A stretch of 64,000 nucleotides of DNA from assembly GCF_045037415.1 (NCBI RefSeq), contig NZ_CP173438.1. One strand, written 5' to 3'. Origin of the DNA: Escherichia coli (GTDB taxonomy: Bacteria > Pseudomonadota > Gammaproteobacteria > Enterobacterales > Enterobacteriaceae). Every line of letters starts with the position of its first letter. Within the stretch, counting starts at the first letter, position 1. Both the position numbers and the translations under genes were made by a program. Below are positions 1-24,618 of this stretch, piece after piece. The notes under the pieces are model-generated. The model was not told the DNA's origin and made no database searches. It was given only the letters and a program-made list of their open reading frames with translations.

Positions 1-341
1 TCGTGAAAACCGTCGCTTTTCATGCTGCTGCCCAGCGCAATCATGACCGTAACAAATGAAAAATTGACTGACTGAATTGAAAGTAAACCAGAACCGACGA
101 TGCCGTAGCGGTTTACTTGTAACCAGGTACCAATACCAGAGGCGATCATCGCCATAGAAACAAGATAGGCAGTTGTTTCAGCGGAAAGCTGTAAGGCCGC
201 ACCCACGATTAACGCGGGGGTTACCATCGGAACGAAAATTGCCAACAGATGGGTAATGGCACCTACGAGAGCCTGATGAAAGGGAGGGCGATCCTCCAGT
301 TCAAATATAAGGTCAGAACCTGCATGGTTTATATCAGACAT
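1..341 (-). CDS. xanQ: Xanthine/nucleobase:H+ symporter XanQ (YgfO); N-terminal ~113 codons only, the gene runs off the left edge
   Basis: The reverse complement from ATG (341..339) reads MSDINHAGSDLIFELEDRPPFHQALVGAITHLLA..., a hydrophobic NCS2-type N-terminus I recognise as XanQ. It is not in the ORF track because it has no stop codon inside the window. Confidence 0.85.
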   Translation of the reverse strand, partial: MSDINHAGSDLIFELEDRPPFHQALVGAITHLLAIFVPMVTPALIVGAALQLSAETTAYLVSMAMIASGIGTWLQVNRYGIVGSGLLSIQSVNFSFVTVMIALGSSMKSDGFH

Positions 342-466
342 CCCTTCACTCCTTTTAAAGTAAATTTGATCATCTGAATTAGTAAAATAAATTCCCACGA
401 ATTTGGGGCGCAGGACGCCTTGAGAACGGCTTATCTCATTTTCGCAGTCACTATTTAGTCATCGTT

Positions 467-496
467 CAAACAGAGAAACAGGCCGCCGAAGCGGCC
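467..496 (-). terminator. Probable intrinsic terminator after xdhD
   Basis: GGCCGC-ttcg-GCGGCC hairpin (481..496), followed on the minus strand by the T-rich tail tgtttctctgttt. It lies 10 nt after the xdhD stop. Confidence 0.55.
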
Positions 497-505
497 ATTT
501 ATTAC

Positions 506-3376
506 TTATATTTTTTCCAGCGCGGTGAGTATTTTCTCCGGTGTGAAATGCCATTCGCGTAACCAGATGCCGCAGGCATCGTGAATTGCGGTAGCAATCG
601 CCGGAGCTGCGCCATTTACACCGATTTCCGAGATCGATTTCGCCCCGAATGGGCCGACTTTATCGTCGCTCGGCACCAGCACAGCGCGGAAATCACGCGG
701 AATGTCACCAATTTTCGGTGCGCCGTAACTGCGTAAATCACGCGTTAACGGGTGACCTTCGGCGTCATAAATGATCTCTTCGCTCATACTGTGGCCGATA
801 GCACGCAGGGTGGCACCGTAGATTTGTCCCAACGCTAACTCTGGATTGACCGGTGTACCGCAGTCCAGCAAGGCGTAGAATTTATCCAGGCGGATTTCAC
901 CCGTACGCGTGTTGACGGCAACTTCAGCGAAGTTTGCGCCATACGGGAAGGCGAAATCAGGTGTGATATAACTGCCAGTTCCCACCAGTGAACCAAAGCC
1001 GGTGCCGGTTTCGCCTTTATGGGCTATCTCTCCGAAACTAACTTCGCCTTTCTTGCCGCGAACGACGCCCGGCGTTGCTAGTTGAACATCTGCCACTGGC
1101 TCACCCAATATTTGCGCGCCGTGGAACAGGATTTTCTCCCGCAGATTTTCCGCTGCCAAACGCGCAGCGTTACCCGAGAAGCAAGTACCGGACGAGGCAT
1201 ATGCGCCTTTATCAAACAGTGCATGATCGGTATCACCAGAGATAACATGCACGTCCTGCGGTGGGCAGTGCAGCACTTCTGCTGCCAGTTTGGTCACCAC
1301 AGTATCCAGACCAGTACCAATATCCGCACCACCGGAATGAACGATAAAGGTGCCATCCGATTCCAGTTTGATCATGCAGTTAGCCTGATCGATATCCGGG
1401 ATACCCGATTTCTGCATGATAATGGCGACGCCGCGACCGATGTGCCAGTCACCATTTTGCGGTTTTGGTGAAGACCATTGGATCATCTCGCGACCCTGAC
1501 GCAGGATCTCTTCCAGTGCGCAGCTGGCGGCGGAAGGAACGGAGGTCGGCGCTTTACCTTCACCGATTGCACCGAGAATTTTCAGCTCTTGCCCTTCGTG
1601 TACCCGGTTACGTTCGATAATTTCCAGTTGGTCGATCTGTAACTGTTCAGCCAGTTCCGCTAATGCCATGGTGATAGCGAAGTTACCTTTCGGTGCGCCA
1701 TAACCCTGATAAGCACCATTTGGGCAAATGTTGCTGTAGTAGGTGGTGACCTGAAAATCGACGTTATCGCATGGATATAACGGCAGCGACAGCGCCGGTC
1801 CGTTACACGGTACGGTGAGTGAGTGGTTACCGTAAGGACCCGTGTTGGCGCGGAAATCCATCTTCACTGCCGTCAGGCGACCATCTTTTTTCGCGCCCAG
1901 TTTGACGGTGACTTTCGCGACGTGACGAGAGGTGTTAGCAATAAACTCTTCTTCACGGGTGTAGCGGAAAAGTACCGGACGCCCGGTCACGCAGGTTGCC
2001 CAGGCGCACACTTCTTCCAGCAGGATGTCCTGTTTGGAACCAAAACCGCCGCCAACTCGCTCTTTAATGACATGAACTTTATGCTGTTTCATGCCCACGA
2101 GGCGCGCGACCTGGCGGCGTAAGTGCCATGGTACCTGGGTGGAGGCGTGGATCACCAGACGATCGCCGTCCATACGGGTAAAGCAGATATGTGTTTCAGT
2201 CGGGCACTGCTGTGCCTGCGTTGAATTATAGGTTCGCTCAATGATCACATCGGCATCGGCAAAGCCTTTGTCCATATCGCCAATATGACCATGAATACTG
2301 GCGGCGATATTTTTGCGTGGGCGAGAACCGATCGGGAAGTTGATGATCATATGCTCGCCGCGCTGGGCTGCATGGCTGTTATCATCTTCCAGAGTATCTG
2401 GCGCACCAGCAACATACACCACCGGTTCATCGTGCACGACAGGCGCATCTTCCGCCATTGCCTCGTCAATCGACATTACCGGCTTAAGCACTTCATATTC
2501 AACGTCGATGAGCTTCAGTGCTTCGAGCGCAATGTCTTCACTTTCGGCTACTACCGCAGCAACGCGATCGCCGACGTGACGCATTTTCTTGCCGAACATT
2601 CGGCGGTCAAGCGGTGACGGTTCCGGTGCGCTCTGACCACCCGGGGTATAGTAAATATCCGGGCAATTCAGGTGAGTAATAACGTGAACGACGCCCGGTA
2701 AGGCTTCAGCTTTGCTGACATCCAGATGAGTAATCAGTGCGTGAGCGTGTGGGCTACGTAACATTTTAATGACGCAGGCGTCAGCCGTTACGCGATCTTC
2801 AACATAGCAGGGTTTCGCCTGCACCATTTTCGCGGCATCAGTTTTAGGATAATGCTTGCCAATGACTTCAAGGTCGTCACGGAAAGTCGGAGCGATATCA
2901 ATGGTGGCCTGCGGATTATTTTTACGTGCAACCGCCAGTTCAATGACCTGATAGTATTGCTGCCAGCCAGCATCGCGGCTAAACAGACCTGAGAGTGCGT
3001 CGTCGATCTCTTCGCGGGTAGGTGCGTCGATGCGATCGAGAAGATCGGTGATAATCAGAGCCGCAGCTGGATCGTTATAACCAGACTGCACCACGCCAAC
3101 ATCAACCATGGCCTGTTGAACCAGACTTAACTCATTCCATTTGCCCAGAGATTCTGCGGTACGAATATCTGCCTTCTCTAACTGTGCGGCGATAAGCAAG
3201 GACGCGTTAACGATATTACCGTTAAAGATAATTGCGTCAGAACCGGCAAACCCAAAGCCATCATCACTGTTGCGTACAGAGTGCATTCCCATGTTAAACA
3301 ACAGCTTTTGCACGTTTTCGCCTGGATTAACGGTTAGCTCCTGAGGCGCGCCATTTAAAGTAAAGTGGATGATCAT
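506..3376 (-). CDS. xdhD: Molybdenum hydroxylase large subunit fused to a degenerate (Cys-less) ferredoxin-like N-terminal region; putative selenium-dependent purine hydroxylase XdhD (YgfN)
   Basis: 956-aa ORF, full-length match to my memory of E. coli XdhD. It is paralogous to XdhA in this window (aldehyde oxidase/xanthine dehydrogenase Mo-binding domains) and overlaps ygfM by 4 nt. Confidence 0.95.
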   Translation of the reverse strand: MIIHFTLNGAPQELTVNPGENVQKLLFNMGMHSVRNSDDGFGFAGSDAIIFNGNIVNASLLIAAQLEKADIRTAESLGKWNELSLVQQAMVDVGVVQSGYNDPAAALIITDLLDRIDAPTREEIDDALSGLFSRDAGWQQYYQVIELAVARKNNPQATIDIAPTFRDDLEVIGKHYPKTDAAKMVQAKPCYVEDRVTADACVIKMLRSPHAHALITHLDVSKAEALPGVVHVITHLNCPDIYYTPGGQSAPEPSPLDRRMFGKKMRHVGDRVAAVVAESEDIALEALKLIDVEYEVLKPVMSIDEAMAEDAPVVHDEPVVYVAGAPDTLEDDNSHAAQRGEHMIINFPIGSRPRKNIAASIHGHIGDMDKGFADADVIIERTYNSTQAQQCPTETHICFTRMDGDRLVIHASTQVPWHLRRQVARLVGMKQHKVHVIKERVGGGFGSKQDILLEEVCAWATCVTGRPVLFRYTREEEFIANTSRHVAKVTVKLGAKKDGRLTAVKMDFRANTGPYGNHSLTVPCNGPALSLPLYPCDNVDFQVTTYYSNICPNGAYQGYGAPKGNFAITMALAELAEQLQIDQLEIIERNRVHEGQELKILGAIGEGKAPTSVPSAASCALEEILRQGREMIQWSSPKPQNGDWHIGRGVAIIMQKSGIPDIDQANCMIKLESDGTFIVHSGGADIGTGLDTVVTKLAAEVLHCPPQDVHVISGDTDHALFDKGAYASSGTCFSGNAARLAAENLREKILFHGAQILGEPVADVQLATPGVVRGKKGEVSFGEIAHKGETGTGFGSLVGTGSYITPDFAFPYGANFAEVAVNTRTGEIRLDKFYALLDCGTPVNPELALGQIYGATLRAIGHSMSEEIIYDAEGHPLTRDLRSYGAPKIGDIPRDFRAVLVPSDDKVGPFGAKSISEIGVNGAAPAIATAIHDACGIWLREWHFTPEKILTALEKI

Positions 3377-4152
3377 ACGGCTTCCTCCCCAGCCTGTTGG
3401 CAGTCGGCATACAGGTCGGCTACCAGAACTCCCGTGATATAGCGTTTATAGGCCACGCTGCCCCGCAAATCTTCCTGCGGGAAAATGGCGTTGGCGACAG
3501 CCTGTTCCAGTGCATTGCCTTCCAGATTTTGAGTTTCAACATCATGCAGACGCAGTGCTTTACTGGCGACGCCATCCAGCGCAATTCGCATACCGTCGTG
3601 GTCTGTTATTGCAACGGCTGCCGTCACGACGGTTAAACCTGCCTGAGAACGGCTAATTTTGCGAGTCGCACAGGTGCGATACGGATCTTTAATGATAATT
3701 TCGGTTAACAGGCGATCGCATGGGCAGGCCAGGTAGTCCTCGATTGACAGCGTTTCGCCGTTGCCAAAAACCAGTTCAGCATCCAGTGCCAGCAGGACGG
3801 GAAGCAGCACTGACTCTTCTTGCCGGGCGGCAATTTCACCACCAATGGTCGACTGATTACGAACATGGCGAGAGTAGACAAAACCGAGAGCTTCCCGCAG
3901 TGCTGCAGGAATAAATCGCGCATCACGCAGTGGCTGCAAGCGAGACATTGCGCCAATTCGTAGTGCACCGTTATCCCAGTCAATCCAGTCCAGCTCCAGA
4001 TCCTGCAAGGAAATGGCAATCTTTTTATCGGTACGGGTTGGTGTAGCGTTGAGTTTGCTGCCCCCGGCGAACCAGACGGCTTCATCCTGGTAGCGGCGCT
4101 TCAGTTCCAGCGCCTGTTCGACAGAGTCGGGTCTGAAAAATTGTTCAATCAT
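3373..4152 (-). CDS. ygfM: FAD-binding subunit of a molybdenum hydroxylase (CO dehydrogenase flavoprotein-like) YgfM
   Basis: 259-aa ORF resembling XdhB/CoxM FAD-binding subunits (AGGSKL..., GGEIA motifs). It is translationally coupled to xdhD. Confidence 0.9.
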   Translation of the reverse strand: MIEQFFRPDSVEQALELKRRYQDEAVWFAGGSKLNATPTRTDKKIAISLQDLELDWIDWDNGALRIGAMSRLQPLRDARFIPAALREALGFVYSRHVRNQSTIGGEIAARQEESVLLPVLLALDAELVFGNGETLSIEDYLACPCDRLLTEIIIKDPYRTCATRKISRSQAGLTVVTAAVAITDHDGMRIALDGVASKALRLHDVETQNLEGNALEQAVANAIFPQEDLRGSVAYKRYITGVLVADLYADCQQAGEEAV

Positions 4153-4202: not shown

Positions 4203-5531
4203 TTATGCCAGCGCATCCATCCGACGCCACATACTGGCAGCGGCTTTTCTGGCTTGCGCATAAATGGAATCGCAATCGAAGTTAAACTGACGGTCTTCAT
4301 AGACCATCACACCATTGACCATCACGCTGTGAACGCTACCTGAGCCCATACCGAAAGCGATATGCCCGGCGATATTGTCTGCCAGCAGCGGCGTCGGCGA
4401 GTTGTAATCGCAAATGGTTAAATCGGCTTTGTAACCGGCTTCCAGAAGCCCAAATTTCGCGCCAAAGTTGCGGCTCATCAGTTCGTTGCCGTTAGCCAGT
4501 GCTTTGGCAAAACTGTCAGGCCACAGCGGGCCACCCGCATCGCGATGTTTAAAGAAGGCAAATTTCATCTCTTCAAACATGTCCGAACCAATGCCGTCCG
4601 TTCCCAACGCCAGATTGCGGATGTCGCTAAGGTGATGGTTGTAGCCGACATGGTTGTTCATGTTTGAACGGGCGTTATGCACCAGGAACGCATCGCGCTG
4701 ATTGAGTAGGACGATGTCATCTTTCGACAGGTACAGCCCATGAGCGACCAGCGTTTTGCTGTCGATGAGATCGAATTGCGCAAGTCGTGCCAGCAGGTCT
4801 TTGCCGTACCAATGGTGACTGTAGGAAACGTCGTAAAGGTCTTCCGCAACGTGAATATGCAAACCACGACCTGTGCTTTTCACGGCTTCACGCAGCATCT
4901 CCAGACCGGCATCCGGCACGGTAAACGGCGCGTGAGCGCCGATATGTGCTTCCACCAGATACGGCTCGGTTGCTGCTTTCTTCGCCTCATCAATCTGACG
5001 GGTGAAGCGGATGTTTTCTTCTACACCTTCCTGCAACTCTTTGATGCCGTTGTTACGGTCAGTAGTTTCAAAACAGGTCATCGCGCGCAGGCCAACTTTT
5101 AAAAATGCGTTGCGCAATGTGGAGAGCGACCCGTCGATATACGCCGGAGAGGCATGGTGATCGATAACCGATGTACATCCGCTCTTAATCGCTTCCAGGG
5201 AACAAATCAGTCCGCTGTAATAGAGCGACTCTTCATCAAGAGCGCGATCGAGCCGCCACCAGAGATTTTTCAGCGTTGAGATGAAATCCGGGCAGGGGGC
5301 GATGTTTGCCATAATTCCGCGGGAAAGCCCCGAGTAAAAATGGTTGTGCGAGCAGACAATTCCCGGCATCACAATCCGACCATGCATCTCTTTGTAGCTG
5401 GCATCGGGGTAGCGTTGCGTCAGGGCATCGCCGATAGCGACAATCACATCATTTTCGATGGCGATATCAACGCCTTCCTGCACTTTCGCCGGGTGTAACT
5501 GCACTGCGGTGACATTCTTCAGAATCAACAT
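4203..5531 (-). CDS. ssnA: Amidohydrolase-superfamily protein SsnA (aminohydrolase/deaminase-like)
   Basis: 442-aa ORF with the HxH metal motif (CSHNHFYSG) typical of the guanine/cytosine-deaminase-like amidohydrolase fold. Recognised as E. coli SsnA. Its start codon lies 3 nt after the ygfK stop. Confidence 0.95.
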   Translation of the reverse strand: MLILKNVTAVQLHPAKVQEGVDIAIENDVIVAIGDALTQRYPDASYKEMHGRIVMPGIVCSHNHFYSGLSRGIMANIAPCPDFISTLKNLWWRLDRALDEESLYYSGLICSLEAIKSGCTSVIDHHASPAYIDGSLSTLRNAFLKVGLRAMTCFETTDRNNGIKELQEGVEENIRFTRQIDEAKKAATEPYLVEAHIGAHAPFTVPDAGLEMLREAVKSTGRGLHIHVAEDLYDVSYSHHWYGKDLLARLAQFDLIDSKTLVAHGLYLSKDDIVLLNQRDAFLVHNARSNMNNHVGYNHHLSDIRNLALGTDGIGSDMFEEMKFAFFKHRDAGGPLWPDSFAKALANGNELMSRNFGAKFGLLEAGYKADLTICDYNSPTPLLADNIAGHIAFGMGSGSVHSVMVNGVMVYEDRQFNFDCDSIYAQARKAAASMWRRMDALA

Positions 5532-5533
5532 GA

Positions 5534-8500
5534 TTACACCTCCACGCGGCCCAGCAGATAATGATGATGCTGGTGGACATGGCTAATGATGCGGCACATA
5601 TCGTTCAGCTCCGGTGGTACGTTGTTGAACTGACCTTCGCTGTCGATGTTTAACACCCAGCTTTGGTTATTCAGACGTACGCGTACCCGGCAATCTTCCA
5701 CAAGGAAGCCTGGGTTACTGCTGTTATCAAAGTCTTGCGACAGGCTGAAGACGGTGATTTTGTCTTTGTACGGTTTACCGTTCCACGGGCAGAATTGGGC
5801 GCAGTTGCCGCATTCGTTGCAGTAGGCATCGAGATGCAGCGTCTGGAAACGGTTCTGGAAGCCAGGAACCGCAATGGATACGTTGGCGCGGTTCGGGCAG
5901 ACATCCACACACTTGCTGCAAACGTAGTTACATTCAAGGCAGCGTGCGGCTTCCTGTGCGACAAACGCGTCACGATCGTCACTGTTCACCAGAGTGACAG
6001 AGATATCGCCTTTACGTTGATAGATTTCCGCCGGATTTACGTTGTTCCAGTATTTATCGTTCTGGTGGGAACGGATATTTTCCCGACTAAGGATGGTATC
6101 GGTCGCCCGACGCGCGGTTCCGACAGCAGCGACAATGGAGGATGGTCCGCGCTGTACGTCGCCGATCATAAAGACGTCAGTCAGACGCGTTTCGCCATTA
6201 TGGTCGACGTCTGGCCAGCCGTTTTTGTCCAGCGGCACGCCCATCGCATTCAGGGCTTCAGTATCCTGCTGTTCACCAATGGCGGTGATCAGACTGTCCA
6301 CATGCAGTGTTACTGTTTCGTTGGTTTCAACCGGACGGCGACGACCTTTCTCATCAGGTTCGCCAAGCGACATAACGCGCAAGGTTAAGGTGCCATCAGC
6401 ATCGAAACGTTCCGGATTATTCAGAAAACGGAACTCCACGCCGTCGTGCAACGCTTCTTCATACTCTTCGCGCCATGCGGGCATTTCTTGCAGTGAACGA
6501 CGGTAAACGACCGTTGCTTTTTCTACGCCTGGAACGCGTAACGCCGCACGAGCGCAGTCCATTGCGGTGTTACCCGCCCCGACAACGACCACATGTTTGC
6601 CCAGCTTGAGCGCGGTGCCCTTGTTGTATTCACGCAGGAAAGGGAGTGATTTCCAGACATTTTGGTTGTCGCCCGCCAGTTTCACACCGCTATTTTTATC
6701 AGTGCCGGTGGCAATCAGAACATAGTGGAAGCCCTGATTTTTTAACTGTTCAACGGTCAAATCGGGTGAGCAACCGTACTCAAATTTCACGCCGTGAGCG
6801 GCAACAAAATCGATATCGTGCTGAATTAACTCTGCAGGAATACGGAACTGAGGAATGATATTTTTCACCACGCCGCCCGCATTGGCTTCGCGTTCAAACA
6901 GCGTGACCGGATGGCCCGCTCTGGCAAGGAAGTAACCTGCGGCCAGACCCGCCGGACCTGCACCAATCACGGCTACCGGATGGCGTGAACCGGAACCGGC
7001 TGGTTTGTGCCAGCGTTGCTTATATTCATCCCAACCTTTTTCCAGGGCGACTTTTTTCAGTTCGCGGATATTCAGCGCACTGTCGTAATCCAGGCGGGTA
7101 CAGTTGTATTGGCACTGGTGATCGCAAATATGACCGGTAATGGCGGGCAGGGCGTTGCGTTGATAGATGAGTTCCAGCGCGTCGGCATAGCGGTGTTCGC
7201 CAAGCAGACGGATGTATTCCGGAATATCTTGCTTGATAGCGCAGGCAGTAACACAGGGGGCAACGTAGCAATCGGTCAGCGGCAGGTCTTCAGCCACTTC
7301 AATACGCTCTTCTGGCTTCCAGTGTTTCTGGGTGTATTCCATGGTTAACGCGTCTGCTGCCAGTCTGTTCAGTCGTTCGACGTCAACGTGGTTAAGCTCC
7401 CAGGCGTCGGAGCCTTCCAGCTCGCGCATGCAGGCACTTAAGCGCAGATAGCCGCCAGGTTTCAGCAGGTCGGTTGCCATAGTAATAGGGCGAATACCAG
7501 TATCAAAAATATCGCGGATAGTCAGCTGACTGGCACCACCGGAATAAGAAATGGGCAGTTTGCCGTCAAAGGCGCGAGAGAGAACTGCTGCAACGTTGAT
7601 GGAGAGCGGGAACAGCGCACGGCCTGACATATACATCTCTTCACCGGGCAGTGCGCCTTTATTGTTGATGGTGCCGAGAGTGTTAGTCAGTTTTACGCCA
7701 AAGCCGAGTGATTTTTCTTTTGCCAGTGCCATCAGGCGTTCCAGCATTTCCAGTGCTTGCGTCAGCTTGAGGTCGTGATCAAATGACTCTTCTTTTAAGC
7801 CGATGTAACCGAAACCGCAGACATCGAGGATCTCACGAACACGCGCGTACCCCAGTAAGGTCGGGTTGAGTTTCACAAAGGTGTTGAGTCCTTTTTCTTC
7901 CAGCATGTAGCGGCAAATGGCTTCGATTTCATGCGGAGGACAGCCGTGCATGGTGGAGAGGGTAACACCTTGTACCATGCTGGTGGGGATGCGAGCGGGT
8001 AAGGCTTGCAAGCTTTCGCGTTTTTCCTGCAATCCGTGGCGGGCTAAAAATGCCTCATCCTGGAGTAGCTTATTAAGTGCATCGCGGTATTGAGCGAATT
8101 TCGGATGGTCAGATGCGTCCATCATATTGTCGATGAACTGCTGCATCGGCGGTTGCTTAATACCTTCGAGGTTGTAACCGACGCTCATATTAAAGATGAA
8201 CGATTTACCGGAATCAGAAGGCTGGAACATCGCTTCGAGAAGGTGCAGGGCAAACCAGGCTTTGAGGTATTCATCCCAGGCTTTAAGCAGGGTAAATTCG
8301 GTAGACCATTCGGTGTTAAAGCACTCGTCTTCGGCATCGATACAGGGCTTTTCCAGCTCCAGACGGTCAAGAATTTGGACGGTTTTTAGTTCGATGAAGC
8401 GTCCGCCAGTCAGCCAGGAAGTGACAATATTTTGCGCGAGTTGCGTGTGCGGGCCAGCGGCAGGGCCGACGGGAGTGGCACAGGTTTCACCGAAGACGCT

Positions 8501-8632: not shown

Positions 8633-8711
8633 AACCCTCTCCTTAGCTTATACAGATATCATTGAGTGACCGGTGTTGAGAAATCCGGTGGTTTAGGGGG
8701 ATAGAGCAACA

Positions 8712-8731
8712 ATCGCACCACTCTTGCCAGG
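8712..8731 (-). promoter_or_regulatory. Candidate sigma54 (-24/-12) promoter for ygfK-ssnA-ygfM-xdhD
   Basis: The minus strand reads cCTGGCAAGAGTGGTGCGa. GG and GC have the correct GG-N10-GC spacing of TGGCAC-N5-TTGCW. The site is about 85-100 nt upstream of the ygfK ATG, and a sigma54 activator gene (ygeV) lies in the cluster. Confidence 0.35.
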
Positions 8732-15749: not shown

Positions 15750-15806
15750 TATTTTTCTCCAGATTTTTTACTCCCCGTTTTGCAGGGAGCAGTTCCAATA
15801 GGGTGA

Positions 15807-17003
15807 TTAAGGTGCTACAGCGTGTTTGCCTTCCCAGACAACTTCGCGGTAGTGCTTCACGTCGGTGTCGCCTTCAGTGCTGATAACCAGCACCACGGCA
15901 TCTTTGTTCAGCGCCAGTTTTTCCATCAGGCTTTGACGTTGCGGGTGATAATGAACCGCTGCGAGAACGCCCAAACCGACAGCGCCGGATTCACCGGAGA
16001 TGATGCGCGGGTCGTTGCCGTACGGATTACCCAGCACGCGCATACCTAATGCGGCAACGCTGTCCTGGCAGGAGATGAATTGGGTGGCGCAGTTACGTAG
16101 GATTTCCCAGCCCAGCGGGTTAGGTTCGCCGCAGGCCAGGCCCGCCATGATGGTGGCCATATCACCGCCAACGTTGACGATGTCGCCTTTGACGCCGGAG
16201 CGATAAATACAGTCAGCTTTGTCAGGTTCAACAATAATGCTGTGCAGATTTTGCGGGCTATAGACGTCGACCAGATAACCCAGCACACCACCGGCCATTG
16301 CACCGACACCTGCTTGCAGCAGAACGTGTGTCGGGGTTACGCCCATTTCACGCATTTGCTCGACGGCTTCATCCGCCAGTGTTGCGTAGCCTTGCATGAT
16401 CCAGGTTGGGATTTTGGTGTAACCTTCCCATGCCGTGTCCTGTACCACTTCCCAGCCGTGCTGCTGCGCGTGTTGCATGGTCAGGCGAACGGTATCGTCA
16501 TAGTTCATATCCGTGACGATGCACTCGGCACCGAGGTTTAGAATGGCGTCAACGCGTTCCTGAGCAGAACCTTTCGGCATGTAAATCACCGCATTCTGTC
16601 CGAGTTGCTGAGCGGCCCATGCCACACCGCGCCCGTGGTTGCCGTCGGTGGTGGTCGCGAAAGTCATTTTTTCGCCAATGGCATTTTTCAGGTGCTCAAA
16701 TGATAGCGTTTCGATATCAAGATGATATTTTTCACACAATAATTGAGCGATGGCGTATGCGCCGCCGAGCATTTTGAAGGCGTTCAGACCGAAGCGTTTT
16801 GATTCGTCCTTAACGAGAATTTTCTTTACACCAAACAGGTTTGCGAGATCGTCCAGCGCACAAAGCGGTGTTGGGCGATAACCAGCAATTTTCTGGTGGA
16901 ACTGGCGTGCCAGTTTTGCCTGGCTTTGCGAAAAAAGCGGTGATGTTTCGCCGTTGAAAAATTTGTTATCGGCGATATCAATCTTTAATGAGAAAACGGA
17001 CAT
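15807..17003 (-). CDS. ygeX: PLP-dependent 2,3-diaminopropionate ammonia-lyase YgeX (DpaL)
   Basis: 398-aa ORF with the PLP-lysine context GLNAFKMLGG. Recognised as E. coli YgeX/DpaL. Confidence 0.95.
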   Translation of the reverse strand: MSVFSLKIDIADNKFFNGETSPLFSQSQAKLARQFHQKIAGYRPTPLCALDDLANLFGVKKILVKDESKRFGLNAFKMLGGAYAIAQLLCEKYHLDIETLSFEHLKNAIGEKMTFATTTDGNHGRGVAWAAQQLGQNAVIYMPKGSAQERVDAILNLGAECIVTDMNYDDTVRLTMQHAQQHGWEVVQDTAWEGYTKIPTWIMQGYATLADEAVEQMREMGVTPTHVLLQAGVGAMAGGVLGYLVDVYSPQNLHSIIVEPDKADCIYRSGVKGDIVNVGGDMATIMAGLACGEPNPLGWEILRNCATQFISCQDSVAALGMRVLGNPYGNDPRIISGESGAVGLGVLAAVHYHPQRQSLMEKLALNKDAVVLVISTEGDTDVKHYREVVWEGKHAVAP

Positions 17004-17060
17004 ATCCTATCCTTTTGGCCTCTGGAAATAGAGGGCCGACCAGCTGATCGGCCCGAGGGG

Positions 17061-18251
17061 TTATTTCACGCGTTCTTGCGCTTCTTTCAGCAGTTGCTCG
17101 AGCAGTGCACCTGGTTTGGCGTATTTACGGGACAGGATCATCGCGGCGATGATATAAGGCTTCCAGCTGGCTTCTTTGTAGGTAGCGATACGGTATTTTT
17201 CGAATACGCCTTCAGTCACTTCACCTTCTTTGCAGGATACGCCGCTGATATCAGCTGGCAGGCAGTGCATGTACAGGGCTTCGCCATCACGGGTCAGCTC
17301 CATCATCTCTTCGGTACAATGCCAGTCTTTGTGCTGTGCGTTCTGTGCCAGACACTGTTTTTCCAGCGCTTTCAGTCCTTCGTGATCGTTCGCACGCAGC
17401 AGTTCAGTACGCTCTTCCATCACTTTGTAAGGTGCCCAGGACTTCGGATAAACGATGTCTGCGTCTTTGAAGGCTTCTTCCATGCTGGTGACCTGACGGA
17501 AGCTACCACCGGAGGCTTTAGCATTGTTTTTAGCAACTTCAACGACATCCGGGATCAGGTCGTAGCCTTCCGGATGGGCCAGGGTGACATCCATACCGAA
17601 GCGGGTCATCAGACCGATGATGCCTTGTGGTACAGAGAGCGGTTTGCCATAGCTTGGGGAGTAGGCCCAGGTCATGGCGATTTTTTTACCTTTCAGGTTT
17701 TCCAGTGAACCAAAGTGTTCACGTAACCATGCCAGATCAGCCATTGATTGAGTCGGGTGGTCAATATCGCATTGCAGGTTCACTAAAGCCGGACGCTGCG
17801 GCAGCACACCCTGCTTGTAACCGTCATCAAGTGCAGCGCCAACTTCACGCATATAGGCGTTGCCTGCGCCCAGATACATATCGTCGCGAATACCGATAGC
17901 GTCAGCGCAGAAGGAGATCATATTGGCGGTTTCACGCACGGTTTCGCCGTGAGCGATTTGTGATTTACCTTCGTCAAGATCTTGTTGTGCAAGGCCGAGC
18001 AGGTTAAGCGCGGAAGCATAAGAGAAGCGGGTACGGGTGGAATTGTCGCGGAATACGGAAATACCTAATCCACTATTAAAGACTTTGGTTGAGATGTTTT
18101 CAGCACGCAGTGCTTTTAACGCGGCGGCAACGTCCAGTACTTGTTTCAGTTCGTCTGGCGTCTGTTCCCACGTTAACAAAAAATCTTTTTCATGCAGGTG
18201 AGAGGTCAGCGAATTGATATCCTTAATCAGCTCATTAACAGTTTTCATCAT
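17061..18251 (-). CDS. ygeW: Knotted carbamoyltransferase YgeW (ATCase/OTCase fold, physiological substrate unresolved)
   Basis: 396-aa ORF with the carbamoyl-phosphate binding STRTR motif (NSTRTRFS) and HCLP motif (MHCLPA). Recognised as E. coli YgeW. Confidence 0.95.
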   Translation of the reverse strand: MMKTVNELIKDINSLTSHLHEKDFLLTWEQTPDELKQVLDVAAALKALRAENISTKVFNSGLGISVFRDNSTRTRFSYASALNLLGLAQQDLDEGKSQIAHGETVRETANMISFCADAIGIRDDMYLGAGNAYMREVGAALDDGYKQGVLPQRPALVNLQCDIDHPTQSMADLAWLREHFGSLENLKGKKIAMTWAYSPSYGKPLSVPQGIIGLMTRFGMDVTLAHPEGYDLIPDVVEVAKNNAKASGGSFRQVTSMEEAFKDADIVYPKSWAPYKVMEERTELLRANDHEGLKALEKQCLAQNAQHKDWHCTEEMMELTRDGEALYMHCLPADISGVSCKEGEVTEGVFEKYRIATYKEASWKPYIIAAMILSRKYAKPGALLEQLLKEAQERVK

Positions 18252-18340
18252 AAAGTCCCGATAGTGGAATGACAGGCAAAGTGGTTTATTTCACTGTGAC
18301 GTGCCAAAGTGATTGGTGTTTTCACAGCTATACCTCGGAC

Positions 18341-18358
18341 TAACAATAAGTGTGCCAG
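18341..18358 (-). promoter_or_regulatory. Candidate sigma54 promoter for the ygeW-ygeX-ygeY-hyuA-yqeA operon
   Basis: The minus strand reads TGGCAC-actta-TTGTT, a perfect -24 element with correct spacing, but the -12 is TTGT rather than TTGC. It is about 95 nt upstream of the ygeW ATG. A second GTGCCA at 18301..18306 has a poorer -12. Confidence 0.25.
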
Positions 18359-18609
18359 AATTATCCACGCGGCTGCGAAAGGCTAATTTGACGGATAATG
18401 TGTGGGGTTGATCACATATTGATGCCAGTTTCCGGTTGTTTGTAAAATACGAAAACGTTTGGCTTTTTTTATTACGTTATTTATTTGCTGCTAAGTATCA
18501 GAAATAAGATAAAGAGGCAGGCTATCTCTCTTCAGTTTGATAAACTTGCCGCTGTAATTCTCATATTGATATAGAAATGTGATATCTCTTCCATAATTTT
18601 ATTAGAAAG

Positions 18610-18634
18610 TGATAAAAATCTTATGTTTTTATCA
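18610..18634. promoter_or_regulatory. Perfect 9-bp inverted repeat in the ygeW/ygeV divergent control region (possible operator/UAS)
   Basis: TGATAAAAA-tcttatg-TTTTTATCA, about 95 bp upstream of the ygeV ATG. The function is not known to me. Confidence 0.3.
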
Positions 18635-18726
18635 AAGCCAATTTCGCCTGAGTTAATATCATCATGATCTGTGAACCATCAACGTCTTCAATGATCGACT
18701 TTTAAGTAAGTCTGGAAGGTAAAGCT

Positions 18727-20505
18727 ATGGAGCTTGCGACTACGCAGTCAGTATTGATGCAAATTCAACCAACAATTCAGCGTTTTGCCAGAATGCTTGC
18801 CAGCGTTTTGCAGCTTGAGGTTGAGATCGTTGATGAAAACTTGTGTCGCGTCGCCGGAACGGGCGCGTATGGGAAGTTTCTTGGCCGCCAGTTGAGCGGC
18901 AACTCACGTCTGCTCCGCCACGTCCTGGAAACGAAAACTGAAAAAGTTGTGACACAGTCTCGCTTCGATCCCCTTTGTGAAGGTTGCGATAGTAAAGAAA
19001 ATTGCCGCGAAAAAGCATTTCTGGGTACGCCAGTCATTTTACAGGATCGTTGTGTTGGGGTGATAAGTTTGATTGCCGTTACCCACGAGCAACAAGAACA
19101 TATCAGTGATAATTTACGCGAATTTTCCGATTACGTTCGCCATATATCCACCATTTTTGTTTCTAAACTTCTGGAGGATCAGGGACCAGGAGATAACATC
19201 AGTAAAATATTCGCGACCATGATCGATAATATGGATCAGGGCGTGTTAGTGGTTGATGCTGATAATCGGGTTCAGTTTGTTAATCAGACAGCTTTAAAAA
19301 CACTCGGTGTTGTACAAAATAATATTATTGGAAAACCTGTTCGTTTCAGACCATTAACATTTGAGAGTAATTTTACCCATGGTCATATGCAACATATTGT
19401 TTCGTGGGATGATAAAAGTGAATTAATCATTGGTCAGTTGCATAACATCCAGGGCCGACAACTATTTTTAATGGCGTTTCACCAATCGCATACCAGTTTT
19501 TCTGTAGCAAATGCACCTGATGAACCGCATATTGAACAATTGGTTGGCGAGTGCCGTGTTATGCGGCAATTAAAACGACTCATTAGCCGTATTGCACCCA
19601 GCCCATCCAGCGTTATGGTGGTTGGTGAAAGCGGCACGGGTAAAGAAGTCGTCGCCCGTGCAATCCATAAGTTGAGCGGAAGACGGAATAAACCCTTTAT
19701 TGCTATCAACTGTGCCGCGATTCCGGAACAGCTTCTGGAGAGCGAACTGTTCGGTTATGTTAAAGGCGCATTTACTGGCGCTTCTGCCAACGGTAAAACA
19801 GGGTTGATTCAGGCGGCGAATACGGGCACGCTGTTTCTCGATGAAATTGGTGATATGCCATTAATGTTGCAGGCTAAATTACTGCGCGCTATTGAGGCGC
19901 GTGAAATTCTGCCGATTGGTGCCAGTAGCCCAATACAAGTCGACATCCGCATCATTTCTGCAACTAATCAGAATTTGGCCCAGTTCATTGCCGAAGGTAA
20001 ATTCCGCGAAGATCTCTTCTACCGACTTAATGTTATCCCGATAACTCTTCCACCGCTGCGTGAACGTCAGGAAGATATTGAATTACTAGTGCATTACTTT
20101 TTACATCTGCATACCCGTCGTCTGGGATCGGTTTATCCTGGCATTGCTCCTGATGTCGTCGAAATATTGCGTAAGCATCGTTGGCCCGGAAACCTGCGCG
20201 AGTTAAGCAATTTGATGGAATATCTGGTTAACGTTGTTCCTTCAGGTGAAGTTATCGACAGCACGCTATTGCCGCCAAATCTGCTGAATAATGGCACAAC
20301 GGAGCAAAGTGATGTAACAGAGGCCAGTGAGGCGCACCTGTCACTCGATGATGCGGGCGGCACGGCGCTGGAAGAGATGGAAAAGCAAATGATCCGCGAG
20401 GCGCTTTCACGTCATAACAGCAAGAAGGAAGTTGCTGATGAACTGGGCATCGGCATTGCTACGCTCTATCGCAAGATTAAGAAATATGAGTTGTTAAACA
20501 CATAA
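18727..20505 (+). CDS. ygeV: Sigma54-dependent transcriptional activator YgeV (N-terminal sensor + PAS + AAA+ + HTH)
   Basis: 592-aa ORF with Walker A GESGTGKE, the sigma54-contact GAFTGA motif (KGAFTGAS) and a C-terminal Fis-type HTH (IGIATLYRKIKKY). Recognised as E. coli YgeV. Confidence 0.95.
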   Translation: MELATTQSVLMQIQPTIQRFARMLASVLQLEVEIVDENLCRVAGTGAYGKFLGRQLSGNSRLLRHVLETKTEKVVTQSRFDPLCEGCDSKENCREKAFLGTPVILQDRCVGVISLIAVTHEQQEHISDNLREFSDYVRHISTIFVSKLLEDQGPGDNISKIFATMIDNMDQGVLVVDADNRVQFVNQTALKTLGVVQNNIIGKPVRFRPLTFESNFTHGHMQHIVSWDDKSELIIGQLHNIQGRQLFLMAFHQSHTSFSVANAPDEPHIEQLVGECRVMRQLKRLISRIAPSPSSVMVVGESGTGKEVVARAIHKLSGRRNKPFIAINCAAIPEQLLESELFGYVKGAFTGASANGKTGLIQAANTGTLFLDEIGDMPLMLQAKLLRAIEAREILPIGASSPIQVDIRIISATNQNLAQFIAEGKFREDLFYRLNVIPITLPPLRERQEDIELLVHYFLHLHTRRLGSVYPGIAPDVVEILRKHRWPGNLRELSNLMEYLVNVVPSGEVIDSTLLPPNLLNNGTTEQSDVTEASEAHLSLDDAGGTALEEMEKQMIREALSRHNSKKEVADELGIGIATLYRKIKKYELLNT

Positions 20506-20543: not shown

Positions 20544-21023
20544 TTACTTTGTTTTCTCGCAATCCAGAACTGTATTTACAATCATCTGATACCCCGTGCA
20601 GCGACAAAGATTTCCCGCCAGTCCACGACGAATTTCCGTAATGGTTAATGGCTTCTCGCGTGGTTTCGCCAGCATTGCCGTGGTAGCCATAATCAGGCCC
20701 GGCGTACAAAACCCGCATTGCACTGCACCAGATTTCGCATAAGCCAGTTGGACATGAGAAAGTTTACCGCCTTTCGCTTCACCTTCCAGCGTGCGGATCT
20801 CTTTTCCTTCAGCCCAGGCCGCAAGGAATAAGCAACTGTCTATCGCAGTGCCGTCGACCAGCACCGTACAGGCACCACATTCACCCACGCAGCACCCTTG
20901 TTTGACACTTAGCAGTCCTTGTTCGCGGAGTAATTCCGAGAGCGGCGTGCCTGGTGCGGCGTGAAGCTGAAAAGGCATCCCGTTAATGGTGCATTCGATG
21001 GTAATTGTTTCGCTGTGATTCAT
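20544..21023 (-). CDS. xdhC: Xanthine dehydrogenase [2Fe-2S] subunit XdhC
   Basis: 159-aa ORF with both canonical cluster motifs: [11 protein letters not shown]...C and QCGFCTPG...CRCTGY. Confidence 0.96.
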
Positions 21024-21897
21024 TGCAATTTCCCCCCGCCGCGGCGACGGCTTCGCTAATCACTTTTTTGGTCATCGTCTGGATGAGATGCAGACGAAAC
21101 TCTTTACTGGCCCGCCATGACGAACGCGGGGCGACATCTTGCAGGACTGATTCGCTGATGGCTTCCAGCGTTTGCAGGTTTAATGGCGCATTTTGTGCAG
21201 TCTGTTCGGCATGTTGGCAGCGAATCGGCGTTGGCGCGGCAACACCAAATGCCAGGCGTAATTCGCTGAAATTGCCGTTATCCAGTCGGCAATGTGCGGC
21301 GCAGCCAATTGTTGAAATATCCATTGCGTCGCGCATGGCATATTTAAAATGCGCGCTGCCCGCGTGTTCTTTCGGCTGTGGCGGAAAATGAAAGGCGACA
21401 AGGATTTCGTCATGCTCAAGAGACACTTTGCCCGGCCCGGTGTGAAAGCCATTAATCGGGACGAAACGAACACCGCGCGGGGAGTGGATCTCCAGTTTCG
21501 CGTCATAAATTAGCGTTGGCGTGGCAGAATCTGCGCTGGTGGCACCGTTGCAAATATTTCCGCCGTAGGTGGCGACATTACGGATCTGCGGCCCGGCGAT
21601 TGATGCAGCCGCAGCACATAACGCCGGGAGATGACGTTGAGTTACAGGATCTTCAATGAGCTGGGTAAATGTCGTTGCAGAGCCGATACGTAGCGCGCCA
21701 TCTTCCGCCAGCGTAATTCCCCGCAGCTCCGCCAGATTATGAATATCAACAATATGGCGATAACGGTCATTGTGATGGTGAAGCTGTATCAGTACGTCAG
21801 TGCCACCGGCGAGCAGTTTGGCCTGCGGGTTGTCAGTCAGCAGGTTGATGGCATCGGCAAGGGTTGCTGCGCGATGGTAAGAAGCAAAATCAAACAT
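20983..21897 (-). CDS. xdhB: Xanthine dehydrogenase FAD-binding subunit XdhB, here 304 aa with an altered, extended C-terminus
   Basis: The ORF matches XdhB through ...SEAVAAAGG and then reads [15 protein letters not shown], overlapping xdhC by 41 nt. From memory K-12 XdhB is 292 aa, ending GGKLQ* at an ATGA overlap with xdhC. Confidence 0.85.
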
Positions 21898-21907
21898 GAT
21901 GTTATCC

Positions 21908-24166
21908 TCAAATCAATCCTGCCAGATGGAATTCTTCATATAATCGTTTTGGCGTTAGCGGCAGTGTATTGATTGCAACACCGGTAGCCATCTTCACCGC
22001 GTTACGAATAGCAGCGGCTACAGGAATTATGGGTGGCTCACCCAGTGACTTATGTCCGTATGCGGATTGCGGCTCATTGATTTCGACGAACGCGCTTTCC
22101 AGTTGTGGCAGATCCGGCATGGTCGGCATTTTGTAATCCAGCAGATTGGGGTTACGGACCACGCCGCTTTTCGCATCGATGATCATCTCTTCAAATAGCG
22201 CCCAGCCAATGCCCATCCCCATTCCGCCGTGTACCTGACCTTCTGCCAGCAGCGGATTAAGAATATGGCCCGAATCATGAACGTTGAGGATGCGGTTGAT
22301 GGTTACTTTACACAGTGCAATATCGACCGTCAGATCAACAAAGGTACAGCCAAACGCCGGTGGGTTAGTGGTGGTTTTGATGGAGCTTTCGGCAGAGAGC
22401 TGCCCGCCGCGTTCAGGGTGGTAGAAAGCGTCCATCGCCAAATCTTTTAACGACATTAACGGCTCTTCCGGTCGTTCAACCAGCACGATATGGCCTTTTA
22501 TCAGGGTCAGATTCATCGCTGACTGATGTAGCATGACTGCGGCGTGAGCGATGATTTTCTCTTTTAATAACAGTGCCGCACTGCGCAGCGCAGGCGCGGC
22601 AACATAGCTCTGACGTGAGGCAAATGCGCCGGGGTCGAATGGTGTAACGTCGGTGTCTTGTGTCGAAATTACGCGGACATCGCTGACCGGAACTCCCACG
22701 GTTTCTGCCACCATTTGCGAGAACACGGTGTCGGCACCCTGGCCGATTTCCGTCGCGCCGCTTTGCACGTTGATGGTTCCATCCTGATTCATCAACAGGC
22801 GCGCGCCTGCTATTTCTACGCCGACAGGCCAGGTGTTAGAGGTGTAGCTAAAACAGGCGACGCCAACGCCACGACGTAAATTGCCTTGCTGGTTCTGGCA
22901 CTCTGCACGGCGTTTTTCCCATTCAAAGATTTTCCGGCCTTTTTCAAGACACTCCGGCAACCCTGCGCTGTAAATACGTTTTCCCGTGAGCGGATTAGCA
23001 TCTCCTTCGCGGGCGGCGTTGCGTAAACGAATTTCAACAGGATCAATACCTAACGCTGTCGCGGCATCATCAAGCATAGACTCAACGGCAAATACGACTT
23101 GTGGCGCGCCATAACCACGCATCGCACCAGCCGAGGGGAGGTTGGTATAGCAGGTCTTTGAACTGTAAGCGTAGGCACAACGAGGATAAAGGTAAGCGAC
23201 TTTATTCCCCCCAGCAGAAGCAATGGAGTGCCCGTGAGATGCATAAGCGCCGGTGTTAGACAGAACATCCAGACTATAACCTTTCAATGTTCCGTCGCGG
23301 TTCACGCCCATTTGCCCGTCAATAGTAAAAGCGTGGCGGGTACGGGTTGCGAGGAAACACTCTTCACGGCTAAGAGAAACTTTCACCGGAATGCCGCCAA
23401 GTTTGCTTGTCAGGAATGCCGCCATTGGCTCTTCCAGTACATCCTGTTTATTACCAAAACCGCCACCGATAAACGGTTTGATGACTCGTACGCATGACCA
23501 GGGAATATCCAGCGCCTGACCAACCACGCGGCGAACAATGTGCGGGATCTGGGTGCTGGAAACGATGGTAATTCGCGAGTCATCCTCCATCCATGCCAGC
23601 GATGTCACGCTTTCCATATGACAATGTTGAATAACGGGCGTCTGATAGTGCCCCTGTACCTGGTAGTCGGCGGCATCGATTGTTTGTTGGACATTACCCG
23701 TCGACATCGTGCTTTGTTTCAGTAAATTGCCACCGTTATGGATTGGTGCAGCGTCTTCTGCCAGCGCCGCTTCTGACGAGGTGATAACGGGTAATTCTTG
23801 CCACTCAATGCTGACCAATTGCACCGCTTTTTCTGCCGTGAGTTCATCGCGGGCTACGACGATGGCAACGGCGTCACCATGATGACGAACATGACGCGTT
23901 AGCAGGGCACGATCGGCAGTATCGCGCTTGTTTTCGTCAAGTGTCCAGGCATGCCCTGCCGTGGCGAATGGGATTTCTGGCACATCTTCCCAGGTAAAAA
24001 TCGCCAGGACGCCCGGCAAACTCCTGGCTTGTTCATCATTAATACTTACGGCATAACCATGTGCGATAGGGCTACGTACATATTTCGCGTAACACATGCC
24101 CGCCATAACATAATCGTCAGTATATCGTGCCCGCCCGGTGACCTTAGCAATGGCATCGACGCGCAT
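21908..24166 (-). CDS. xdhA: Xanthine dehydrogenase molybdenum-binding subunit XdhA
   Basis: The track ORF is 765 aa. I take the internal ATG at 24166 (MRVDAIAKVTGRARYTDDY..., 752 aa), which matches the K-12 length I remember. The Mo-hydroxylase GEPP motif is present. Confidence 0.93.
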   Translation of the reverse strand: MRVDAIAKVTGRARYTDDYVMAGMCYAKYVRSPIAHGYAVSINDEQARSLPGVLAIFTWEDVPEIPFATAGHAWTLDENKRDTADRALLTRHVRHHGDAVAIVVARDELTAEKAVQLVSIEWQELPVITSSEAALAEDAAPIHNGGNLLKQSTMSTGNVQQTIDAADYQVQGHYQTPVIQHCHMESVTSLAWMEDDSRITIVSSTQIPHIVRRVVGQALDIPWSCVRVIKPFIGGGFGNKQDVLEEPMAAFLTSKLGGIPVKVSLSREECFLATRTRHAFTIDGQMGVNRDGTLKGYSLDVLSNTGAYASHGHSIASAGGNKVAYLYPRCAYAYSSKTCYTNLPSAGAMRGYGAPQVVFAVESMLDDAATALGIDPVEIRLRNAAREGDANPLTGKRIYSAGLPECLEKGRKIFEWEKRRAECQNQQGNLRRGVGVACFSYTSNTWPVGVEIAGARLLMNQDGTINVQSGATEIGQGADTVFSQMVAETVGVPVSDVRVISTQDTDVTPFDPGAFASRQSYVAAPALRSAALLLKEKIIAHAAVMLHQSAMNLTLIKGHIVLVERPEEPLMSLKDLAMDAFYHPERGGQLSAESSIKTTTNPPAFGCTFVDLTVDIALCKVTINRILNVHDSGHILNPLLAEGQVHGGMGMGIGWALFEEMIIDAKSGVVRNPNLLDYKMPTMPDLPQLESAFVEINEPQSAYGHKSLGEPPIIPVAAAIRNAVKMATGVAINTLPLTPKRLYEEFHLAGLI

Positions 24167-24618
24167 GCATGATTCACCCGTAGCGGTTGCTTCCCGCGCT
24201 TCCATAGAAATCCCCTCGGTTTGAACATTTGGTTCTTATGGCAAAGATTTAGTCTTAGCAGGCAAGAATTACGCCAGAAACGACTATATGCGTGAGGGGA
24301 GGAAGGAAGTGTGATGACGTTAAAAAAACACAGATATGATACGAAACAGGACTCTGAATAGGGACAGTGATACGTATCAATATGAGTGGCGATAAAATCA
24401 ATGTGATAAATTAGGATTATTACGCATCAAGGTGGGAAATAGGGTAAAAGTCAGGAAATTCGATACCACTACAGCAAATATTTTGCTGATGATACTTCCC
24501 TTTGCCAAATGAAATTAACCTCTTTCTCTATTACATCGTTTTTCCAGAAGCAAGAGATTGGGTATCAAGAGGCTGGCTGCTATGATATGGCGTCTTGTTT
24601 TTTAAGCGAGGAAAGATT

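Follow-up and report, generated by a model that had tools for sequence, protein, structure and literature searches.

We analysed a 64,000-nucleotide stretch of an Escherichia coli genome (RefSeq assembly GCF_045037415.1, contig NZ_CP173438.1; hereafter the window), whose first 24,205 nucleotides hold a cluster of molybdenum (Mo) hydroxylases, hydrolases and accessory genes together with ygeV, which encodes a sigma-54 enhancer-binding protein. Megablast showed positions 1-24205 to be E. coli chromosome: several strains matched the entire query at 100% identity, a match of some kind was found in 5335 of 5426 complete genomes of the species, and in 5148 genomes it covered at least 80% of the length. 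Identity between the window and E. coli chromosomes ranged from 95 to 100%, and K-12 MG1655 aligned at ~94-97% identity in two short stretches. A first-pass annotation, made from the sequence alone, had counted nineteen genes in this region; the RefSeq annotation of an identical strain and the list of open reading frames agree on 17, i.e., 16 complete genes and the 5' part of xanQ (Table 1). The gene list and family names given there proved sound, as all 15 enzyme and accessory proteins scored above the curated NCBIfam cut-offs of the families named. HyuA, YgeW, YgeY, YgeX and the carbamate kinase, all five above their cut-offs, are encoded in one co-directional block (12120-18248), and ygfK and ssnA, both above their family cut-offs, are spaced by 2 bp. 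The left edge of the cluster is an artefact of the window; in the identical strain the locus goes on outside it via guaD, ghxQ, ygfS, ygfT and uacT. An end at 24205, in turn, excludes the sigma-54 promoter of xdhA (24261-24277) and its upstream site (24375-24385). We considered horizontal acquisition, and found the GC content of the enzyme genes (0.50-0.54) to be typical of E. coli and lower only in ygeV and the spacers. At 18001-20000, which takes in ygeV and its upstream spacer, G+C is 0.42-0.44. An Rfam scan of positions 1-26000 gave a sole match, a tRNA-Gly at 25453-25523, with no riboswitch or small RNA within the cluster. The start of xdhA in the strain's RefSeq annotation lies 39 nt upstream of that annotated in K-12, making the protein 765 rather than 752 residues long.

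We assign this locus, with a probability of about 0.93, to the E. coli system for anaerobic reductive purine degradation via uric acid (the 2,8-dioxopurine or 'yanthine' pathway). This system has been described before, and its chemistry was solved step by step in 2025, when two independent groups, working largely with E. coli MG1655 proteins, reconstituted the pathway and identified every intermediate (Li et al. 2025, Life Metab, PMC12507026; Liu et al. 2025, bioRxiv 10.1101/2025.04.24.650524); both studies are summarised in an independent commentary (PMC12990295). Li et al. used enzymes from E. coli and Clostridioides difficile, and purified E. coli proteins were used in all steps after urate reduction (PMC12507026; bioRxiv 10.1101/2025.04.24.650524). 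XdhABC converts xanthine to urate, and an E. coli xdhA deletion shows no xanthine consumption (PMC12507026). With NADH, E. coli XdhD-YgfM takes the C6 oxygen off urate to give 2,8-dioxopurine, and a ~30 kDa protein, taken as YgfM, co-purifies with XdhD (PMC12507026). YgfK then reduces the 2,8-dioxopurine ring with NAD(P)H, and the reduced ring (dihydro-2,8-dioxopurine) is hydrolysed at once by SsnA, which opens the pyrimidine ring to yield ureidomethylhydantoin (coupled YgfK and SsnA assay, PMC12507026). HyuA carries ureidomethylhydantoin to 2,3-diureidopropionate, as seen with C. difficile HyuA in a single-enzyme assay and with E. coli HyuA in the full reconstitution. YgeW uses phosphate to cleave one ureido group of diureidopropionate, releasing carbamoyl phosphate, from which YqeA makes ATP with ADP; E. 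coli YgeW and YqeA together formed ATP (bioRxiv 10.1101/2025.04.24.650524). The last ureido group is removed by YgeY to leave 2,3-diaminopropionate (coupled YgeY and YgeX assay, PMC12507026), and YgeX converts diaminopropionate to pyruvate and NH3, in keeping with the build-up of diaminopropionate in an E. coli ygeX mutant (bioRxiv 10.1101/2025.04.24.650524).

The first-pass annotation had anticipated much of this logic: a Mo enzyme, ring reduction, two hydrolytic ring openings, carbamoyl phosphate harvested as ATP, and a diamine deaminated to pyruvate all stand. It erred in having XdhD-YgfM hydroxylate a purine, since this enzyme reduces urate. The two Mo enzymes are not redundant hydroxylases; XdhABC hydroxylates xanthine, and XdhD runs reductively to an unexpected 2,8 isomer. 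Its statement that the chemistry was mostly unassigned, with intermediates and substrates undefined, has been obsolete since the two 2025 reports (PMC12507026; bioRxiv 10.1101/2025.04.24.650524), and the gene deletions and 13C-urate tracing it proposed had already been published for E. coli, where single deletions each block the conversion of urate to acetate. The same earlier E. coli work found that urate induces ygfK and ygfT. Database product names lag behind the 2025 biochemistry: RefSeq and NCBIfam still call YgfK a 'putative selenate reductase subunit', SsnA a 'putative selenium metabolism protein', YgeY a 'YgeY family selenium metabolism-linked hydrolase' and HyuA a 'D-phenylhydantoinase'.

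Table 1. Genes, promoters and candidate regulatory sites at the purine degradation locus (positions in the window).
Feature	Coordinates	Strand	Evidence or remark
xanQ (xanthine/H+ symporter), 5' part only	1-341	-	gene continues past left window end; RefSeq annotation of identical strain
xdhD, Mo/Fe-S subunit of urate reductase (2,8-dioxopurine dehydrogenase)	506-3376	-	TIGR03313 2116.7 bits (cut-off 1101.9); Pfam Fer2_2, Ald_Xan_dh_C, MoCoBD_1/2
ygfM, FAD-binding partner of XdhD	3373-4152	-	TIGR03312 487.6 bits (cut-off 241.5)
ssnA, amidohydrolase	4203-5531	-	TIGR03314 737.6 bits (cut-off 455.5)
ygfK, Fe-S flavoprotein, NAD(P)H:2,8-dioxopurine oxidoreductase (DOPOR)	5534-8632	-	TIGR03315 1778.8 bits (cut-off 835.3); Pfam Fer4_20, Pyr_redox_2
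sigma-54 (-24/-12) promoter of ygfK-ssnA-ygfM-xdhD, TGGTGCGATTGTTGCT	8705-8720	-	motif scan; identical to site OS31 from chromatin immunoprecipitation sequencing (ChIP-seq; Bonocora et al. 2015)
candidate YgeV site, perfect palindrome TTATCATAATGATAA, ~184 bp upstream of ygfK promoter	8889-8903		motif comparison
mocA, molybdenum cofactor cytidylyltransferase (molybdopterin cytosine dinucleotide, MCD, cofactor)	8954-9532	-	TIGR03310 215.9 bits (cut-off 186.45)
yqeC, marker of selenium-cofactor trait	9636-10406	+	TIGR03172 236.2 bits (cut-off 73); Pfam YqeC
yqeB	10454-12079	+	TIGR03309 417.4 bits (cut-off 220); Pfam XdhC_CoxI, XdhC_C
GC-rich hairpin between convergent yqeB and yqeA	12088-12113		10-pair stem, 8 G-C pairs, T-rich tails on both strands; pattern match only
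yqeA (arcC), carbamate kinase	12120-13052	-	TIGR00746 385.4 bits (cut-off 358.25)
hyuA, hydantoinase	13100-14485	-	TIGR02033 667.5 bits (cut-off 393.25)
ygeY, M20 hydrolase	14538-15749	-	TIGR03526 721.6 bits (cut-off 321.5)
ygeX (dpaL), pyridoxal phosphate-dependent diaminopropionate ammonia-lyase	15807-17003	-	TIGR03528 651.1 bits (cut-off 532.25)
ygeW, knotted carbamoyltransferase	17061-18248	-	NF005538 825.2 bits (cut-off 453)
sigma-54 promoter of ygeW-ygeX-ygeY-hyuA operon, TGGCACACTTATTGTT	18342-18357	-	motif scan; identical to ChIP-seq site OS30
candidate YgeV site TATCAATATGAGA, ~215 bp upstream of ygeW promoter	18559-18571	-	motif comparison; same 13-mer pattern in orthologous spacers
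ygeV, sigma-54 enhancer-binding protein	18727-20505	+	Pfam, translation, structure model and fold search, conservation
xdhC, [2Fe-2S] subunit of xanthine dehydrogenase	20544-21023	-	NF007387 338.4 bits (cut-off 212)
xdhB, FAD subunit of xanthine dehydrogenase	20983-21897	-	NF007427 529.9 bits (cut-off 287)
xdhA, Mo subunit of xanthine dehydrogenase	21908-24205	-	NF007426 1484.5 bits (cut-off 916)
sigma-54 promoter of xdhABC, CTGGCGTAATTCTTGCC	24261-24277	-	one mismatch to ChIP-seq site OS29; beyond the 1-24205 interval
candidate YgeV site cluster upstream of xdhA, TTTATCACATTGA, CTCATATTGATAC, TGATACGTATCA, ~110-135 bp upstream of promoter	24368-24410	-	motif comparison

The first-pass annotation had also flagged a conflicting assignment of ygfK-ygfM-xdhD to selenate reduction; in this reading the three would form a selenate reductase, and the genes around them would serve selenium metabolism. 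Haft & Self 2008 (PMC2276186) listed ygfK, ygfM and ygfN as selenate reductase subunits, and the RefSeq/NCBIfam names of YgfK, SsnA and YgeY still speak for it. Purified E. coli YgfK, however, selectively reduces 2,8-dioxopurine with NADPH, selenate being neither required nor stimulatory (bioRxiv 10.1101/2025.04.24.650524), and XdhD-YgfM turns urate into 2,8-dioxopurine (PMC12507026). The 'selenium' in the family names is a leftover of a 2008 phylogenetic-profile co-occurrence with selD (PMC2276186), and the families co-occur with selD because selenium-dependent Mo enzymes belong to the same pathway. We consider the selenate reductase reading to be largely refuted already, and very improbable for this locus. 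As to whether the genes belong together at all, older single-enzyme annotations (D-phenylhydantoinase, diaminopropionate ammonia-lyase) would allow the locus to be a mosaic, in which unrelated functions adjoin by chance, namely a D-hydantoinase, a lyase detoxifying diaminopropionate, a carbamate kinase of the arginine type and a salvage xanthine dehydrogenase; mocA, yqeB, yqeC and yqeA do fall outside the YgeV iModulon, and a sigma-70-like promoter precedes yqeC. We give such a mosaic almost no credence, as in vitro reconstitution chains the enzymes in order and E. coli deletions each stop the flow from urate to acetate, the structural operons share one iModulon, sigma-54 promoters and the same upstream motif, and the same gene set accompanies a YgeV-type regulator in distant phyla. 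Scarcely any probability falls to the classical clostridial 'xanthinase' route (Rabinowitz), in which xanthine is opened by direct hydrolysis on the way to formiminoglycine: this was the sole anaerobic purine pathway known before 2023, and the cluster does contain a xanthine dehydrogenase and cyclic amidohydrolases, but the route uses other genes, which occur chiefly in purinolytic species from the environment and seldom in gut microbiota (PMC12990295), and the intermediates detected were 2,8-dioxopurine, ureidomethylhydantoin, diureidopropionate and diaminopropionate.

Several points count against the assignment to the 2,8-dioxopurine pathway, or against the way its parts are put together here. 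The two groups have YgeW remove different ureido groups (albizziin versus 3-amino-2-ureidopropanoate) and give different cofactors for YgfK (NAD(P)H versus NADPH only), and the commentary leaves the ureido choice of YgeW, stereochemistry and kinetics to be settled for the E. coli enzymes (PMC12990295). Selenium dependence is known from C. sporogenes and C. difficile and not from the E. coli enzymes, and a C. difficile yqeC deletion had no phenotype. The xdhB gene of this strain has a 3' frameshift relative to K-12: one A fewer in the run GGGGGGAAAAT (~21028-21032), a few nucleotides ahead of where xdhB ends in K-12, extends the frame to 304 residues (292 in K-12), so that the overlap with xdhC is 41 nt as against an ATGA overlap in K-12. 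On the regulatory side, the binding of YgeV to the site proposed below is a prediction, and YgeV dependence has been reported, at second hand, only for ygfT expression (lower in a ygeV mutant) and urate use. Because ygeV has also been tied to ethanol stress (in baeR and cpxR mutants) and, under the name IsrR, to indole, the physiological signal of YgeV is unsettled. Nothing in this list contradicts the pathway itself.

The view that the cluster is one functional neighbourhood centred on YgeV and sigma-54, taken from the outset, was borne out. Of four sigma-54 sites known from ChIP-seq, those of ygeW, ygfK and xdhA, each upstream of its gene, fall in the window and that of ygfT lies outside it (locus L001), and genomic SELEX (systematic evolution of ligands by exponential enrichment) placed an RpoN site between ygeV and ygeW. 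The structural operons vary together as part of a single YgeV iModulon, from whose list mocA, yqeB, yqeC and yqeA are absent; yqeA lies directly downstream of the ygeW-ygeX-ygeY-hyuA operon. Consensus scans for sigma-70 promoters and terminators showed no enrichment over shuffled sequence, and we used them only for the yqeB/yqeA hairpin, which looks like a bidirectional terminator as judged by its pattern, and for the hint of a sigma-70-like promoter before yqeC. Two GC-rich hairpins with T-rich tails were also seen inside the presumed single operon, in the ygeW-ygeX spacer (17033-17054, minus strand) and in the ygeY-hyuA spacer (14501-14520, minus strand); these could be internal attenuators or RNA-stability elements.

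Comparison of the regions upstream of the four promoters (xdhA, ygeW, ygfK and ygfT) identified an 11-mer, TCATATTGATA, common to all of them with at most one mismatch. No shared 11-mer of this kind, whatever its sequence, arose in any of 40 shuffles, these being mononucleotide shuffles and hence a lenient null for AT-rich spacers. Across the window the 11-mer gave 8 matches where 0.99 were expected, and a derived 13-mer, TATCAWWATGAKA, gave 3 where 0.03 were expected, all of them within the ygfK and ygeW upstream regions. The candidate sites precede the -24/-12 elements by 110-215 bp, as sites of enhancer-binding proteins usually do. At ygfK, the palindrome with its flanks (8887-8905) matches a C. 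botulinum DioR site, ATTTATCATAATGATAAGG, at 18 of 19 bases, the clostridial site having been predicted independently by Nie et al. 2019 (PMC6615313). The block of sites upstream of xdhA is identical in K-12, with single-nucleotide polymorphisms in its flanks. The same 13-mer pattern turned up in the corresponding spacer between ygeV and ygeW orthologues in Photobacterium (L002) and Raoultella (L082), and among 91 fetched loci it occurred in 9, only those with a YgeV-type regulator, and in 0 of the other 82. As a query, the strict perfect palindrome TTATCANNNTGATAA was too narrow, returning 2 loci only. We therefore propose, from motif comparison, that YgeV would bind TTATCA-N3-TGATAA sites 110-215 bp upstream of the four sigma-54 promoters, that of ygfT lying outside the window, and would activate these promoters when urate or a metabolite derived from it is present.

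Further copies of these elements were noted in the window. Three one-mismatch copies of TCATATTGATA lie inside hyuA (14010-14020), ygeY (15500-15510) and ygeX (16715-16725), an exact copy lies inside kduD (29912-29922), and another one-mismatch copy is at 33868-33878; all of these may be chance matches. The ygeV-ygeW spacer also contains, near ygeV, a longer palindrome, TGATAAAAACATAAGATTTTTATCA (18610-18634), with TGATAA and TTATCA half-sites in the opposite arrangement and a 13-bp gap between them, which may serve YgeV as a further site or in autoregulation.

In YgeV, residues ~1-150 form a GAF-like sensor with a cysteine triad and residues ~162-260 a PAS domain; an AAA+ domain containing the GAFTGA motif follows at 272-528, and HTH_8 at 548-587. 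Pfam identified Sigma54_activat (237.2 bits), AAA_lid_14, HTH_8 and a PAS match at ~162-205, and the translation contains both GESGTGKE (Walker A) and GAFTGA. Pfam returned no domain for residues 1-160, and no NCBIfam model reached its cut-off on YgeV or covered the first ~95 residues. An AlphaFold model of the sensor, built from a shallow alignment, had a predicted local distance difference test score (pLDDT) of 63 (61-68 around the cysteine loop), and Foldseek matched it to GAF-PAS sensors, the best being the N-terminal part of E. coli DhaR, followed by PpsR, SpoVT, CodY and NifA. At this model quality the fold search supports a 'GAF plus PAS, DhaR-like' description only, and no inference of a ligand.

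Searched by HMMER, residues 1-150 of the sensor gave at least 608 representative clusters (E ≤ 1e-3), and C84, C87 and C93 (C-x2-C-x5-C) were each kept in 89 of 90 full-length representatives; elsewhere in the same 90, G111 was kept in 89, P102 in 88 and E95 in 74. A Brevibacillus paralogue that does not adjoin pathway genes lacks the triad. Such conservation suggests that the invariant triad may be a metal or Fe-S site. It is a more speculative step, and one we hold as tentative and rather doubtful, to suppose that the triad holds a metal or Fe-S centre sensing urate, 2,8-dioxopurine or redox state, and that YgeV represents a kind of purine-responsive sigma-54 activator not described before, working at a TTATCA-N3-TGATAA site shared across phyla. 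For the YgeV ligand, which the first-pass annotation rightly called undefined, no report of an effector was found in the literature searched.

YgeV-type regulators adjoin pathway genes in 10 of 11 informative contexts, spanning Proteobacteria and Firmicutes, and even distant members (23-30% identity) lie beside genes for Mo-hydroxylases, amidohydrolases and permeases, or beside YgeX and YgeY homologues. In a scan of genome contigs with full-length YgeV, AAA+ matches dominated, with full-length relatives at 6 of 80 loci, and three distant relatives of the sensor domain sit on contigs too short to show neighbours. The one exception among the informative contexts is in Peptostreptococcus russellii (L006), where the YgeV-type regulator is followed by two TATCA-N3-TGA copies (7985-8018) and then by a gene of the serine-dehydratase-alpha family (8141-9475), not by genes of the urate pathway, which points to a paralogue of like DNA specificity but with another target. 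At another locus (L084; GCA_002229545.1, NLNS01000003.1) we saw a 156-residue YgeV-like N-terminal fragment among few and very short called genes, with the motif retained at 7836-7848, in what looks like a decaying, pseudogene-rich genome. Two variants of clostridial type (L086, 15491-15737; L004, 2497-5369) have a gene with DHO_dh and ferredoxin domains (the UacX type of Li et al.) in place of YgfK, as well as xanthine/uracil permease genes in tandem, with the regulator motif ahead of each.

The accessory genes between ygfK and the carbamate kinase gene point to the Mo cofactor. YqeB (TIGR03309) and YqeC (TIGR03172), markers of the selenium-cofactor trait, adjoin the Mo hydroxylases and both exceed their cut-offs, and YqeB is a fusion of an XdhC-like Mo-cofactor chaperone (residues 12-247) with the TIGR03309 domain (271-526) and a candidate maturation factor for a selenium-dependent Mo cofactor. 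MocA would supply the cytidine form of the cofactor, and YqeB, possibly with YqeC, would put a labile selenium ligand on both Mo enzymes, the genetics behind this step being clostridial: a C. difficile yqeB deletion resembles selD mutants on xanthine and urate, and selD mutants of C. sporogenes show that 2,8-dioxopurine dehydrogenase and xanthine dehydrogenase there need labile selenium (bioRxiv 10.1101/2025.04.24.650524). Haft & Self 2008 (PMC2276186) place E. coli selD (b1764) in another part of the chromosome, outside the window, and we found no test of the selenium dependence of E. coli XdhD or XdhA in the literature searched.

The cluster matters in that it lets gut bacteria remove uric acid, which humans cannot degrade, while yielding ATP and pyruvate; it has also been engineered into E. 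coli Nissle, lowering serum urate in mice (PMC12507026). As this significance has already been recognised and published, reporting the locus again adds little. What novelty is left is confined to the YgeV effector with its cysteine-triad sensor and to the selenium biochemistry in E. coli, and the remaining gap is a regulatory one, for which the conserved upstream site and the invariant triad in the YgeV sensor are the leads.

Compared with known systems, the closest is the 2,8-dioxopurine pathway locus of K-12 MG1655, which is the same locus with identical gene content, order and families; the differences are not essential, and the papers on that pathway do not treat YgeV, its sites, or MocA, YqeB and YqeC in E. 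coli. The markers of the selenium-dependent molybdenum hydroxylase trait (PMC2276186; Johnstone & Self 2024, PMC11448449), YqeB, YqeC and MocA/YgfJ, are all here above their cut-offs; a difference is that Li et al. (PMC12507026) obtained active E. coli XdhD-YgfM, in a main text without discussion of selenium ('selen' appears solely in one reference title). YgfK and SsnA parallel the dihydropyrimidine dehydrogenase and dihydropyrimidinase of reductive pyrimidine degradation (PydA/PydB/PydC), and YgeW and YqeA parallel the ornithine carbamoyltransferase and carbamate kinase of the ATP-yielding arginine deiminase module. Unlike in those two systems, the substrates here derive from purines, YgfK has large extra N- and C-terminal regions, and YgeW belongs to a separate 'knotted' carbamoyltransferase family.

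For the regulator there are two counterparts. In structure, the YgeV sensor comes closest to E. coli DhaR, also GAF-PAS-AAA+-HTH (4lrx_C, Foldseek E-value 3.7e-8, with low TM-scores of ~0.3 and a model pLDDT of 63), and the NCBIfam model for DhaR gives an alignment with YgeV residues 97-589 that falls short of the cut-off; DhaR, however, senses the partner proteins DhaK and DhaL, whereas the GAF-like domain of YgeV carries C-x2-C-x5-C in 89 of 90 representatives. The other is the DioR sigma-54 regulon of Clostridiales (PMC6615313), which has the same regulator architecture, the same predicted site TTATCA-N3-TGATAA and targets of the same kind (dpaL, ygeW-ygfK-ssnA-ygeY, yqeC-ygfJ-yqeB-xdhC, pbuX and xdhABC). 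It differs in that its function was listed as 'Unknown' in 2019, in that the study took in Clostridiales only, and in that mocA and yqeBC of E. coli fall outside the YgeV module. E. coli YgeV shows 35-40% identity over its full length to homologues in Clostridium, Tissierellaceae, Desulfotomaculum and Peptostreptococcus. The TTATCA-N3-TGATAA site is accordingly a transfer of the existing DioR prediction and not a new discovery, and, given the shared motif and the same gene set in the DioR regulon, we take YgeV to be the enterobacterial orthologue of DioR.

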